Source of the DNA: Gammaproteobacteria bacterium
GTDB lineage: Bacteria; Pseudomonadota; Gammaproteobacteria; JAJDYQ01
DNA: 64,000 nt
Assembly (NCBI GenBank): GCA_028289815.1
Contig: JAPYNQ010000063.1
Location: forward strand, 15,017-79,016
Reading direction: 5' to 3'
Under the pieces are notes generated by a model that saw only the letters and a list, made by a program, of their open reading frames with translations, had not been told where the DNA came from and made no database searches. The position numbers and the translations under genes were made by a program. Positions 1-36,974 of the stretch are shown here, one piece after another. Positions within the stretch are counted from its first letter, which is position 1, and each line of letters opens with the position of its first letter.

Positions 1-506
1 TTCATCGGAAGAATTTCAATCCCGACATCAATGGTATCGGAGACATAGAAGCTCAGGTGCTTTACAAACAAGTCATGTGCGACAAATGCATATTTGCCGA
101 ATTGAACTTCAACGGCAACCCGATCCTTCACAAAATCTGTTTGGTTGTAAGATTTAATTGGCTCATATCCCGCAGCTTTTATGCCGGCCTCCTGCTTATC
201 GGGTGAATAGCCATGAATGGTGCGCAGGATTTTCTCATCAGCAGTCACCCAGAAGGTGTTACGCTGTTCTTTCCATCCGGCATTTTTAAATCCATCATCG
301 AAGGCCTGGTTCATGTCTCTCGGAGAAAATAACATGTCACCTTTTTTACTTTTCTCCTGAGATACCTTTGTCTTGCAGGCATGGGCATCTACTCCTGCGA
401 TGATGCTCCTGACCTGTTGCCACAGGTTACAGTGGTGAACTATCAGATATTCTTTTCCGTTGAGATGTGAATATAGGTTGCCCCGATCCGCATCAGTGCC
501 CTCCAT
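1..506 (-). CDS. Type II restriction endonuclease, BglII/BstYI-like, partial (N-terminal about 168 aa visible; gene continues past the window start)
   Basis: My own translation of the minus strand from the ATG at 506 gives MEGTDADRGNLYSHLNGKEYLIVHHCNLWQQ...DFVKDRVAVEVQFGKYAFVAHDLFVKHLSFY. The segment D-x9-E-V-Q-F-G-K-Y-A-F matches the BglII catalytic region (GKRDTLVEVQFSNYPF, with the E-x-Q variant of the PD-(D/E)xK motif). The ATG overlaps the 3' end of the upstream methyltransferase by 14 nt, which suggests an operon. It is absent from the ORF track because it has no stop inside the window. Confidence 0.6.
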   Translation of the reverse strand, partial: MEGTDADRGNLYSHLNGKEYLIVHHCNLWQQVRSIIAGVDAHACKTKVSQEKSKKGDMLFSPRDMNQAFDDGFKNAGWKEQRNTFWVTADEKILRTIHGYSPDKQEAGIKAAGYEPIKSYNQTDFVKDRVAVEVQFGKYAFVAHDLFVKHLSFYVSDTIDVGIEILPM

Positions 507-1353
507 TGGGTTTTGATGGATCATAGATAGGCTTACCCATAGGGCGCGTCTTAAGTGTCCCCGAATGCATCTGTGAAATACGCTCATTGGCGATTTCAAT
601 GTATTCTTCGGCTATGTCACACCCGTAGGCAGACCGTCCATGCTTGAGGGCAGCTATCGCCGTAGATCCTACTCCCAGATAGGGATCAAATACGGCATCA
701 CTTGCTTCCGTCATGGACAATACCAAGCGTTCCACCAGTTCAATAGGGAACTGGCATGGATGGATGGTTTTCTCTGGATGATTGTTTTTCACATTCGGTA
801 ACATCCATACATCGCTTGGGTTTTTGCCATTCGGATTACAGGACAGCTTCCCCACATTTGGTCCCTTGAAATATCGCTTTCCCGGGTATTTGGATGGGAT
901 GCGGATTGGATCAAGATTCCATGTGTAATGGTCGTTTTTGGTCCACCAGTTGACTGTCTCGTATCTACCCGACAATCGCTTGGTGCAATGTAAGCCATGA
1001 CCGAAATGCCAGATTATTCTATTCCGAAGTTTAAGTCCGTGGGACGCAAAAATTGGATAAAGCGGAATATCCATCGGTATGATCTCTCCGTTGCTCACGT
1101 GGTTTCCTACCTGCCAGCATATCGAACCACGCTCATCCAGCAAGCGAACGCACTCTGAAATGACATCTGCCTGTCTTTGCAGATATTCATCCATAGAAAC
1201 TCGCCTCTCATACGATTTGCCGAGATTGTAGGGAGGTGAGGTGACGATCAGTTTGAATATTCCGTCTGGTAATGCAGACATGAATTTGAGGTTATCCTCA
1301 CACTCAATGACAATCCCGGGTGTCTGGAGTTCTGGTACTGTTGCCATAAACAT
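493..1353 (-). CDS. DNA methyltransferase, beta-class N4-cytosine/N6-adenine family (SPPY motif precedes the FxGxG AdoMet motif); the M subunit of an R-M pair
   Basis: 286-aa ORF. Motif IV is TSPPYNL near the N-terminus and motif I is FDPYLGVGST near the C-terminus. This permuted order is typical of the N6_N4_Mtase family that includes M.BglII and M.BamHI. Confidence 0.8.
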   Translation of the reverse strand: MFMATVPELQTPGIVIECEDNLKFMSALPDGIFKLIVTSPPYNLGKSYERRVSMDEYLQRQADVISECVRLLDERGSICWQVGNHVSNGEIIPMDIPLYPIFASHGLKLRNRIIWHFGHGLHCTKRLSGRYETVNWWTKNDHYTWNLDPIRIPSKYPGKRYFKGPNVGKLSCNPNGKNPSDVWMLPNVKNNHPEKTIHPCQFPIELVERLVLSMTEASDAVFDPYLGVGSTAIAALKHGRSAYGCDIAEEYIEIANERISQMHSGTLKTRPMGKPIYDPSKPNGGH

Positions 1354-3896: not shown

Positions 3897-4962
3897 TTTT
3901 CCGTCCTGTGGGCAAATAAACGATAAAGCAGGTTTTGCCATCACACCTTTCGTATTCGATCAGACCGTCATGTCGCTGTACCAGATTTTGCGCGATCGCC
4001 AGGCCTAACCCGGAGCCATCCTTCCTGCCGGTAACCAGAGGCAGGAACATGGTTTCAACCATATCTTCAGGGATGCCATTGCCGTTATCAATTATTTCAA
4101 CCCTGATCAGTAGGCGATGTTTTACATGCCCGATAGTGAATTGGCGCTCGGGGCGGGTCCTGAGCACTACTTGGTCCTCGCCGGTAGAAGCCTGTATGGC
4201 GTTTCTGACCAGATTCAACAGAGCCTGCTGTAGCATACCGGTATCGGCATCCAGCTCAGGCAGGCTTGGATCATAATCAGCAACAACGCGAATACTGTAT
4301 TCGTTGTCAACCTCAGCGAGCATGCGCACCTGTTCCAGTACCTGGTGAATGTTTACCTTCTCGAGCCTAGGAAGCTGTCTGGGTCCCAGCATACGGTCCA
4401 GCAGGCTTTGCAGACGGTCCACTTCGTGGATGATGACGTCGGTATAACTGGTATATTGAGAATCGGGTAACTCGCCGGCTAGCAACTGTGCGGCACCACG
4501 AATCCCCCCGAGAGGATTCTTTACTTCATGGGCGACACCTCGCAGTAATTCACGGGTGCTTTCTCCCTGGGATAGCAGATGATCTTCGCGGTAGATACGC
4601 AGACGGCGGTCAACCTGATACAGCTCAATCATCAGATACTTAGTACTCAGGTCGTCACTGATTTTCGGGGAGATAACACAGTCAATAATAATACGGTGTG
4701 GTTTCTCCATGACGATTTCCATATCCCTCCCGAAATATATCTGCTGATTGTCCCATGCCATCATCAGCTGCTTATTGATGCGGGTCATCGAGGGAAATGT
4801 CTCGAAGATATTACGATCATTTGCCATGGTGCGGCTTATGCCCAACATGGATTCAGCGGCCGTATTCATATGCCGAATATACAGCCCGGAACCAACAAGT
4901 ACTATGCCGGTGTTCATGGTGTCCAGCAGTTGCCCGGTCTGTGTATTCAGAATCCTACTCAT
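3880..4962 (-). CDS. ntrB: Nitrogen regulation sensor histidine kinase NR(II)
   Basis: N-terminal PAS domain. The H-box HEVKNPLGGIRGAAQLL is nearly identical to E. coli NtrB (HEIKNPLGGLRGAAQLL). N, G1 and G2 boxes are present. It overlaps ntrC by about 17 nt. Confidence 0.9.
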   Translation of the reverse strand: MSRILNTQTGQLLDTMNTGIVLVGSGLYIRHMNTAAESMLGISRTMANDRNIFETFPSMTRINKQLMMAWDNQQIYFGRDMEIVMEKPHRIIIDCVISPKISDDLSTKYLMIELYQVDRRLRIYREDHLLSQGESTRELLRGVAHEVKNPLGGIRGAAQLLAGELPDSQYTSYTDVIIHEVDRLQSLLDRMLGPRQLPRLEKVNIHQVLEQVRMLAEVDNEYSIRVVADYDPSLPELDADTGMLQQALLNLVRNAIQASTGEDQVVLRTRPERQFTIGHVKHRLLIRVEIIDNGNGIPEDMVETMFLPLVTGRKDGSGLGLAIAQNLVQRHDGLIEYERCDGKTCFIVYLPTGRKNDTGK

Positions 4963-25402: not shown

Positions 25403-25486
25403 GTCCGGTCTCCGTTATAATGTCCATTATAATGTAAAAAAGTGCCGCATTGTTTGTCCCGATTGAAAGGGTAAGCCAAGCGGGGG

Positions 25487-25690
25487 AAAAGGCCCCGACG
25501 CACCGCATAAGGGGCGGTACCCCCAGCTTATAGAAGATGCTAATTTTGGGGATTATAACGAGTAGTTGATGACAAGACAACTTCGCTCAATTTCACGCTC
25601 CTGCCTTCTGCAGGCAGGCCTCCACGTGCAACAGCCCCATCTTTGGAGGCCGAAAGGTTGATGGTAACCTTTGTAGCGCGTAATAACAGC
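25487..25690. other. Structured GC-rich non-coding region upstream of rplM: a nested hairpin followed by three tandem perfect hairpins
   Basis: AAGCGGGGG...CCCCCAGCTT encloses GCCCC...GGGGC. Then CTGCCT-tctgc-AGGCAG, GCCTCCA-n20-TGGAGGC and AAAGGTT-gatggt-AACCTTT. No ORF is present. Confidence 0.3.
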
Positions 25691-33558: not shown

Positions 33559-34089
33559 TCAGGGCTTTCTATCGGAATTTTTCCGCCTCAATAGCTGATT
33601 AATCGTGTTGATAATCGCGGAATCGCTCCAGTCTAGGGCACCGACGGCGGCATACTGTATGTTCCCTGACTGATCAAGCAGGAATGAAGTTGGGAAAACA
33701 TAGATATTCCATTGCTTGTGGACTTTACCGTCCATGTCCATCAGTACAGACAGTTCATCAGAGTCAGTTTTTTGGAGGAAAGGCTTGATCTGCGAAGCAG
33801 GTTCACCGACATCAATGGTTATAATGGCAACCGACTGATCATTGAAGTGTTGTTGTAATCTGTTAAGCGAGGGCAGCTCCTCGACGCAGGGAGGGCACCA
33901 AGTTGCCCAGAAATTGAGTAATACTACCTTGCCCTGATAATCATGCAGCTGATGGGATTTGCCATATAGGTCCCGCAGCACAAAATCGGTGGCCGGTATA
34001 TCGCCCTGATAAGGCTTTAATTCGGTTGCGTACACAGGGCCATGGATACCGCAAATGAGCAACATGGCGATAATGGTTGCGGTTTTCAT
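33559..34089 (-). CDS. Periplasmic thiol:disulfide oxidoreductase (TlpA/ResA-like thioredoxin fold)
   Basis: Signal peptide and a WATWCPPC active site. Confidence 0.8.
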   Translation of the reverse strand: MKTATIIAMLLICGIHGPVYATELKPYQGDIPATDFVLRDLYGKSHQLHDYQGKVVLLNFWATWCPPCVEELPSLNRLQQHFNDQSVAIITIDVGEPASQIKPFLQKTDSDELSVLMDMDGKVHKQWNIYVFPTSFLLDQSGNIQYAAVGALDWSDSAIINTINQLLRRKNSDRKP

Positions 34090-34939
34090 TGTATTTTCTG
34101 TAGCTTTTCCATGGCGGAACGAAGCAATGCTCCGGTTCTTTCACGCAGAGCTGTTTCGACAGGGGTACGGTCATCCCGCAGGGGGTAGCCATCTCTGACA
34201 TGCGGCAATTTTTCGATATGGAACCGGTAGGCGTGTGACTGTAAGTGCTCGCTTAATGCTTGCAGGTGCCAGTAATGTGGTGAATATTCTGGCTGGAAAA
34301 TATACACGGGAAGATAAGGATTATTTAGCTCTGCAGTGTAGCGGTGTGTTTTTCCCGCCTCAGGTGTTTCGTTGAGGAGATTTGGGGAGAAAAATATCAG
34401 ACCATCCGGAGGGGCTATGTTATTGTCTCGTAGGTGCTTGCGCCAGCTTGACGGCGAACTAGGCACCCCCGGGCGTGTGTGGAAAAATACACTGGTCGAC
34501 TGGTATCTTGTGCAATCTGTTGTAAAAAACGTGCATAGTCCTCAATGGGCAGCTTATTGTAACTGTTGTTTTCCAACGGTAGAAACAGGTCAGAAAAAAT
34601 ATTGCTCAGGCATGTGGACTGGCCTTGTATCGCCAAGTCTTCGGCATAGTCCAGCTGATCCTGCAAAGAGGCGTAAGCTGTAGGTAGCTGTACCACAATG
34701 CTATCGAAATGTACTAAAAAACAGGATGCGGTCAGCTCGGTGTCGTCCCTCATATAGGAAATTAATCGGCTATCCGGTGAAAACAGGGTTTCCGCGTGAG
34801 CTGGAACTAGGCAAACGCATAGCCCGGGTAGAAACTTAATCAAAACGTTTCTCTTGCCATCCCAGACGGAGCGAGTAAGCACGCTCGTAGAAATTGGTCT
34901 TATCCGAAAAATTTTCCGGATGAAAGGCATCATAAACAT
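34086..34939 (-). pseudogene. Hypothetical protein gene apparently frameshifted (two overlapping ORFs of 174 aa and 126 aa)
   Basis: I translated both frames across 34415..34541. The downstream ORF frame stays open upstream to a TGA at 34542. The overlap region is the same DNA read in two frames. A single indel near 34470-34500 would fuse them into about 284 aa. Confidence 0.35.
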
Positions 34940-35649
34940 GGTAACTCACATACTTATTACTGAGAGGCTTAACAGCTGCCATATTTTTTATAGTGCTGTT
35001 TCAGGGGCTTGTTACTCAACTTTACTCTGGATCTCATGATGTAGGAAGATGGACATGATCGGAATACCCGCTTGTATGGATGTCGCAAATATATTCCAGT
35101 GAAATTCATGGATGTGTCTCCCGTTATATTTGTCCTCCGGAAATATAGTGATGCTCCGACCCGAAAGTGGTTCATCGGTAATTTGGTAGTTTTACGGTTT
35201 TGTATGACTCAGTGAGTTTCCTTGCAACAAACAGCATATCTGGGGCTAAGGTAAAGTGGGCGTTCGGGATATAACGGCTATGGGACCAGTGGTTACGCCC
35301 CGGTCATGGTTGTGTCCAAACTCAACAATCAATCCGCCGGAGTTTTCTTTGAAAAGTGCCTTTGACTAATGCCCCTCAACACCCGGTAGATAACCACCGA
35401 TGGTAGCAGTGAGTTCGAAGGTTTGTTTGACTGCCTTCTTCACGACAGTTATATCGTTCGCCTCGTGGACTGGTTCCAGAACTCCCGGGATGGATGTCGC
35501 CTGTGAGCACTTTAACCGCACTACCCGGGAACAGTTGGTAGGTTTCCATGAGAGCTTATGGTGTACCAATCTAGATTTGCTGGATGCAACACTGGCCGAT
35601 TGGCTGATCAAACACAGTGGCATTCGGTTATTCAGAGGATTGGGATTAC

Positions 35650-35770
35650 GGTAGTGTCTCAGTTTCAAAATTATTTTCTTGCAAGGACCTTTGTCCATCT
35701 CGGAATATGCCGACCATCAAGGCAATACCACAAAACCGAGTAGGCTGAAATTTCAAACTGAGACACTACC
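35650..35770. mobile_element. MITE-like element of 121 bp with 23-bp terminal inverted repeats and an 8-bp direct repeat (GGGATTAC) flanking it
   Basis: Left GGTAGTGTCTCAGTTTCAAAATT; reverse complement of the right GGTAGTGTCTCAGTTTGAAATT. Flanks are GGGATTAC (35642..35649 and 35771..35778). There is no ORF inside. Confidence 0.5.
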
Positions 35771-35885
35771 GGGATTACAGACCTTGGTGCAGCACGTTAC
35801 TAACGGCGATAAAGGGTGCAGTTTATGGTGGACTCATACAGACTATTGCCTCTGGCGTGAGTGGGTTGTAAAGTGTGCAGCTTAA

Positions 35886-36974
<1,089 letters not shown>

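Follow-up and report, generated by a model that had tools for sequence, protein, structure and literature searches.

The spacer between mreB and the divergent gene that precedes it (34086-34939) measures about 970 nt in the window, by which we mean the whole 64,000-nt stretch of DNA analysed here. Relatives align to this spacer on its left side only up to 35070 (L197) and on its right side, in blastn comparisons with L123 and L124, only from 35860-35862 onward, and about 790 nt of it is lineage-specific. This part holds the remnant of an IS481-family transposase gene (35441-35840), and nested within the remnant lies a short element with the marks of a MITE. The features of the region are as follows.

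35441-35649, plus strand: IS481-family transposase pseudogene, part upstream of the MITE, covering about residues 257-325 of homologues of about 350 aa (HMMER)
35642-35649, no strand: left copy of the target-site duplication, GGGATTAC (sequence and repeat finder), an octamer that is single in the relative's IS481 remnant
35650-35672, plus strand: left terminal inverted repeat, GGTAGTGTCTCAGTTTCAAAATT, an end of the IS1-family type (GGnnnTG) by direct reading, containing the TAG that ends an 84-codon ORF
35673-35747, no strand: non-coding interior of the MITE, 75 nt, without detectable relative
35748-35770, minus strand: right terminal inverted repeat, AAATTTCAAACTGAGACACTACC, which as its reverse complement GGTAGTGTCTCAGTTTGAAATTT matches the family consensus at every position
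35771-35778, no strand: right copy of the target-site duplication, GGGATTAC (sequence and repeat finder)
35779-35840, plus strand: downstream part of the IS481-family transposase remnant, reaching the C-terminal ...C..WWTHT and a probable IS right end (...CATACA) (tblastn and DNA alignment)
35843-35906, plus strand: mreB leader or promoter-proximal segment, which follows both IS relics and within the spacer is alone in being conserved in relatives
35907-36974, plus strand: mreB, first gene of mreBCD-mrdAB (Pfam MreB_Mbl), given as context outside the element

The two copies of GGGATTAC directly abut the 121-bp element (35650-35770). The first-pass annotation had described an element of this length with 23-bp inverted repeats matching at 21 of 23 positions and an exact 8-bp duplication, and this description is confirmed by the sequence, by shuffled controls and by the repeat finder: the arms agree at 21/23 positions and are perfect over the outermost 16 nt, 100 shuffles yielded no chance match for such an inverted-repeat pair, and the repeat-finder listing of the window has entries for both repeats, the direct one of 8 bp as D10 and the inverted one as I1. 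A search of the 64-kb window for further copies of the repeat, allowing up to three mismatches, found none, and the element is the sole copy there. ORFs that run across it are either extensions of the flanking pseudogene or spurious. Rfam searched at gathering thresholds gave no match at the site. The predicted RNA fold is a long hairpin (-45.6 kcal/mol, z = -5.1), in agreement with the earlier expectation of such a structure if the element is transcribed, and 136 nt separate the right end of the element from the mreB ATG downstream, close to the roughly 140 nt that had been stated for its distance from mreBCD.

The interrupted IS481-family transposase gene

The 84-codon ORF (35400-35654) has its TAG stop inside the left repeat of the MITE. 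It had been recorded in the first-pass annotation as an ORF of unknown function beside the element; the adjacency stands, and its identity is now that of an IS481 transposase pseudogene fragment split by the MITE. In an exhaustive HMMER search, residues 22-84 of the ORF matched 49 proteins (best E = 2e-15), and the matched region corresponds to about positions 264-323 of 340-560-aa proteins that carry HTH, rve and rve_3 domains. The NCBIfam IS481 model (NF033577) scores 394 bits against one of these homologues, P0140 (cut-off 224), and is also the best match for P0157 and P0149. JGI did not call the ORF, and in the 118-codon form obtained on removal of the MITE its composition is non-coding (GC1 < GC2); the view that the 84/118-codon ORF is spurious was overturned by the HMMER matches to IS481 transposases. 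Like members of the IS481 family, the window remnant has the C-terminal rve_3 region, the motif CEHFNRT (consensus CERFNRT, the catalytic-E motif) and the terminal WWTHT, and it is colinear with full-length transposases over 35441-35649 and 35779-35840. In contrast to them it retains only about 82 C-terminal codons; some 260 codons on the N-terminal side are lost, as is the left end. With so little left, and the MITE dividing what remains, this IS481 copy is a dead relic. In annotation, the 84-codon ORF should be entered as the pseudogene of an IS481-family transposase, interrupted by a MITE, in place of a hypothetical protein.

The junction itself can be read at both the protein and the DNA level. 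Native tblastn alignments to IS481 transposases either break off at the MITE or continue only with a gap of 43 residues, whereas in silico excision of 129 nt (the MITE together with one GGGATTAC) makes them gap-free and lengthens them from 62 to 81-82 residues, with bit scores rising from 53 to 74, from 57 to 66 and from 51 to 66. The excised alignment runs ...GLGLQ/TLVQHV...CSLWWTHT (the slash marking the junction) to the C-termini of the homologues. Moreover, the remnant aligns at the DNA level to L199 over window positions 35441-35838 (67% over 286 nt), across the MITE junction. L199 is an IS481 remnant at an unrelated locus on a relative's 2.57-Mb contig, and it has a single, uninterrupted GGGATTAC at the junction. 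We therefore have an empty site in two senses, in that protein colinearity is restored on excision and a paralogous copy of the target carries one GGGATTAC. Together with the terminal inverted repeats and the 8-bp duplication, this empty site in a homologous target supports the earlier reading of the element as a non-coding MITE that bears the footprint of transposition. Homologous IS481 remnants are scattered in the relative's genome (L199 4076-4360).

The check proposed with that reading, a search of relatives for an empty site with a single GGGATTAC, thus succeeded for the paralogous target copy and failed for the orthologous locus. There, alignment to L123, a syntenic relative whose MreC is 74% identical, begins only at about 35860; of the closest relative's contigs, L122 ends short of the site and L197 departs from the window beyond 35070. 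An unoccupied allele, or an excision, would read ...GGATTGGGATTACAGACCTTGG... across the junction, and GAGGATTGGGATTACAGACCTTGG, the junction expected at an unoccupied site, had 0 matches in a metagenome scan. The window's own MITE was not among the metagenome returns, and the metagenome negatives, for a sibling copy as well as for an unoccupied allele, are weak because the source sample evidently lies outside the collection. The source contig (JGI 3300009883 Ga0131710_100003; 100.8 kb), from an uncultured gammaproteobacterium, was read over 78 kb, that is the 64-kb window and about 14 kb outside it, and these 78 kb hold no other terminus, IS1-type transposase or further IS481 remnant. Nor were further IS1-type ends, an IS1 transposase or IS481 remnants found on the contig that a second run (SRR10406107) yielded, which is 100% identical. 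A search for another assembly of the locus that might break at the MITE brought up this contig alone.

Termini shared with IS1-type transposons and their miniature derivatives

The 20-mer terminus GGTAGTGTCTCAGTTTSAAA was scanned against one genome per bacterial and archaeal species (596 Gb) and is present at no fewer than 120 genome loci in at least 8 phyla, where by our own arithmetic chance would give roughly 2. Hosts among the matches listed are Bacteroidota, Acidobacteriota, Alpha-, Beta-, Gamma- and Deltaproteobacteria, Binatia and NC10, and further Planctomycetota, Verrucomicrobiota and Chloroflexota. Many of the listed loci have two inverted copies of the terminus, mostly 2-4.8 kb apart, and among the matches listed the inverted pairs, most of them full-length elements, are flanked by 8-bp duplications that are perfect in 13/16 cases and agree at 7/8 positions in 2/16. 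The matches listed include 19 complete elements of 2.1-4.8 kb (one of them on a Hoeflea plasmid), all of which encode a transposase of about 280-305 aa adjoining one end, as at L051 1965-2852, and the 20-23-nt ends of the window's element are identical to those of these 19 IS1-family elements. Position 17 of the ends is G in 135/136 ends from the genome loci listed and C in 18 of 142 MITE ends, and the left repeat in the window carries this minor-variant C. When the search leaves positions from 17 on unconstrained, the terminus shows a conserved core of about 17 nt, and similarity is gone after about position 23; invariance at the positions that the search patterns prescribe is a consequence of the search itself.

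The parent transposase matches Pfam PF03400 (DDE_Tnp_IS1) with 35.5 and 25.1 bits (gathering score 24.1), and its best NCBIfam match is the IS1 equivalog at 59-66 bits, below the cut-off of 100, which places it in a distant IS1 subgroup. Plasmid homologues 59-64% identical to it bear the PGAP name "IS1 family transposase". According to ISfinder summaries, the hallmarks of the IS1 family are 8-9-bp duplications and GGnnnTG ends (PMC10425158 Table 8; PMC6807381), and the window's element starts with GGTAGTG and has an 8-bp duplication. An ISAba3-like IS1-family element has the terminal inverted repeat GGTGGTGTTTCA... and 8-bp duplications (PMC6382973), and the outermost 12 nt of our element equal this repeat at 10/12 positions. 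The window's element therefore shares its ends and duplication length with IS1 and ISAba3, and the DDE transposase of its parents matches IS1 models best, although the element itself is without any transposase. IS1595 was considered as a parent family and rejected, the parent transposase giving no match. IS6 was likewise rejected, with 23 bits in Pfam against a gathering score of 27, and in NCBIfam 30 against 66 for IS1. The IS6/IS26 family also has GGnnnTG ends and 8-bp duplications (PMC6807381), and in these features it agrees with the window's element; however, the parent transposase matches IS6 models weakly and secondarily, the matches being below threshold and weaker than those to IS1, and PGAP names the homologues IS1 family. 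On this evidence, the termini are those of a distant, cargo-carrying IS1-family subgroup. The 8-bp duplication had earlier been taken to point to a transposase of the IS1/IS4/ISL3/IS66/IS256 type, and the first name on that list has proved to be the right one, with parents that make 8-bp duplications.

Although the parent family is IS1 in the broad sense, it is other than classical IS1. Classical IS1 is about 770 bp long and has insA/insB' with a programmed -1 frameshift and a zinc finger in InsA. The parents, in contrast, are 2.1-4.8 kb long and cargo-carrying, and have a single ORF of about 300 aa with an N-terminal HTH and, by our own reading, no obvious zinc finger or frameshift; on account of this length, the single ORF and the cargo we regard them as a non-classical IS1 subgroup. 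Passenger genes are possible in the single-ORF and ISMhu11-type subgroups of the ISfinder IS1 family. In the literature library searched, neither ISMhu11 nor the sequence of the repeat turned up.

Several of the parents carry as cargo a HigB-like toxin with an HTH_3 + Peptidase_M78 (IrrE/ImmA-like) partner, and another carries a P63C-domain protein (cargo loci L078 3490-4932, L009 3218-4381, L059, L070, L072 and L086). A conserved protein of 75-100 aa is encoded in 18 of the 19 full-length IS1-type transposons among the matches listed, next to the end opposite the transposase (L012 3881-4126, L078 2714-3016, L051 3801-4064, L196 2821-3057 and 14 other elements). It has the motif ...PADVI..AV.VAKIATGEIEE...GGKARA..LS.E.RSEIA.KAA.ARW, is oriented as the transposase in 4/4 elements checked and has no Pfam or NCBIfam match; it may be an accessory or regulatory factor. 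We raise as a tentative possibility that the parents form an undescribed, phylum-spanning clade of IS1-family cargo transposons, of which the window's element would be one trace, with near-invariant 17-20-bp termini GGTAGTGTCTCAGTTTG, a small accessory protein, variable cargo and repeated, independent MITE families. The termini of this proposed clade range from Bacteroidota to Acidobacteriota to Proteobacteria. The GGTAGTGTCTCAGTTTG termini offer a simple signature by which a widespread group of IS1-family cargo transposons, and the miniature elements derived from them, can be recognised in environmental genomes, and the conservation of the ends across phyla, which points to recent horizontal spread or to tight co-evolution of transposase and ends, may interest specialists in mobile elements.

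Miniature derivatives with such ends are common. A metagenome scan for two 16-nt ends with 74-104 nt between them returned 71 two-ended elements of 106-136 bp, with perfect 8-bp duplications in 27/71 and one mismatch in 9/71; several have 7-bp duplications, offset by one base. By sequence they group into at least 15 clusters; some of these comprise 5-9 copies scattered over several sites with different duplications, which indicates that short derivatives of IS1-type transposons have been mobilised. Compared with the 71 metagenome MITEs, the interior of the window's MITE reaches no more than 60% identity, as shuffled controls do, and it has no significant match in the subterminal regions of full-length elements; the exception is the right end of the MITE, where about 35 nt look like an element end in L049, allowing for one 1-nt indel. 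The eight members of one family of 126-128-bp MITEs with the same 16-nt ends, seven from a single metagenome (sample Ga0082212: L131, L140, L154, L160, L172, L182 and L194) and L195, are flanked by an 8-bp duplication in none of eight cases (4-8 mismatches out of 8), and in this family the true ends or the mode of insertion may differ.

By the definition of MITEs used here (PMC6382973), the window's element has the expected size (121 bp, in a range of about 50-600 bp) and no transposase gene or other coding capacity; its inverted repeats are of the parent type, its duplication has the length found in the parents and in the metagenome MITEs (8 bp), and an empty site exists in a homologous target. 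Similar to MITEAba12 (113 bp, derived from ISAba12 of the IS5 family) and to Correia elements, it is small and non-coding, has the inverted repeats of a parent IS and a duplication of parental length, is presumed to be mobilised in trans and would form a hairpin in a transcript. It differs from them in having an IS1 parent; moreover, described MITE families are defined by multiple copies, whereas a single copy was detected here in 78 kb. For specialists this is an ordinary, unsurprising MITE, and its by-products are a clean proof of nested insertion and the phylum-spanning IS1-type cargo transposons.

Origin of the element and its relation to mreB

Taken together, we consider it very likely that the 121-bp element is a non-autonomous MITE of an IS1-family transposon that inserted into an IS481 remnant upstream of mreB. 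The course of events best supported here is the following. An IS481-family element would have inserted just upstream of the mreB leader, about 66 nt from mreB. A full-length transposon would have supplied an IS1-type DDE transposase, recognising only the ~17-23-bp termini that the MITE retains, and this enzyme would have joined the MITE to an 8-bp staggered cut at GGGATTAC in the 3' end of the IS481 transposase gene. Repair of the gaps would then have produced the flanking 8-bp duplication, and the in-frame TAG brought by the MITE created the apparent 84-codon ORF. Loss of the 5' two-thirds of the IS481 copy could have come before or after the MITE insertion. The element is presumably without activity today.

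The 121-bp form probably arrived as such, mobilised in trans. It is also possible, though we think it unlikely, that a full-length IS1-family transposon inserted at the site, made the 8-bp duplication and later lost its interior, so that the 121-bp form itself never transposed. Such a deletion in place would fit with an interior unlike that of all 71 metagenome MITEs, with the lack of a second copy in 78 kb of the source contig, and with the ~12 nt past the right repeat that resemble the L049 element end and may derive from the end of a transposon. However, both histories yield the same present-day object, and the negatives on further copies are weak, covering 78 kb of the source genome. What favours arrival by mobilisation in trans over deletion in place is that same-size mobile derivatives are abundant in the family, with clusters of 5-9 copies carrying different 8-bp duplications.

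A quite different reading would make the element a conserved regulatory hairpin or attenuator of mreBCD that merely resembles a mobile element, and the strong fold and the position 136 nt upstream of mreB would suit it. We hold this to be exceedingly improbable, as the stem consists of the terminal repeats that a transposon family carries at unrelated loci in many phyla, relatives lack the sequence ahead of mreB, and the element interrupts a transposase pseudogene; it also has no Rfam match, no terminator-like T-run and no plus-strand promoter-like site. The first-pass annotation had named a conserved regulatory hairpin as the outcome should the repeat have no other copy in the genome and orthologous loci carry the same sequence without flanking duplication, and matters stand otherwise, since the repeat is common elsewhere and a homologue of the target offers an empty site with a single GGGATTAC. 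A genuine MITE might nonetheless have been exapted and act in mreB expression, either through an outward promoter or as an RNase III- or terminator-type hairpin in a long leader. IS elements, including IS1, can create outward or fusion promoters (review PMC9330008), and since all sequence beyond about -66 has given way to the IS481 remnant and the MITE, any distal mreB promoter must now lie in or beyond the IS relics. Exaptation nevertheless appears improbable to us: the sole promoter-like site in the MITE is on the minus strand and points away from mreB, in a number no greater than chance (1 found, 1.9 expected), the segment conserved in relatives, with what appears to be a -35/-10 pair, sits downstream of the relics, and, with divergent genes as its nearest upstream neighbours, mreB is not expected to receive read-through transcription.

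In relatives, conservation is confined to about 47-64 nt adjoining the mreB ATG. Judged by eye, similarity in the leader appears to reach back to about 35843 (CTATTGCC), and the right end of the IS481 element (...TGGTGGACTCATACA) lies about 66 nt upstream of the ATG. The conserved segment contains a candidate -35/-10 pair (TTGCCT, 17 nt, TAAAGT); a consensus scan of the region gave no plus-strand promoter-like site and no terminator-like site. The link to mreB implied by the first-pass annotation finds no support here, the MITE lying in a lineage-specific IS graveyard upstream of a short conserved leader. The MITE is most likely an inert relic without effect on mreB, and it matters little for this locus, where nothing suggests that it regulates the operon.

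Other features of the window

The divergent gene at 34086-34939 (minus strand) is split by a frameshift into ORFs of 174 and 126 aa, whereas its relatives (P0122-P0124) are single ORFs of 265-283 aa without a Pfam family; it is either a pseudogene or the product of an assembly error. It has no match in the L123 spacer. In L123 the redoxin gene next to mdh is apparently reduced to about 290 nt (3994-4284, 80% identical to window 33583-33873), and no gene is called there. The reduced redoxin gene and the unmatched divergent gene indicate that the mdh-mreB spacer is variable in this lineage. The window's only Rfam match at gathering score is a DUF3800-VI RNA motif at 25473-25529 on the minus strand (38.5 bits, E = 2e-4). 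A type II restriction-modification pair occupies window positions 493-1353 (minus strand) and the contig to the left of the window (L202 10001-11390), in the order N6/N4 DNA methyltransferase, then BglII-like endonuclease.
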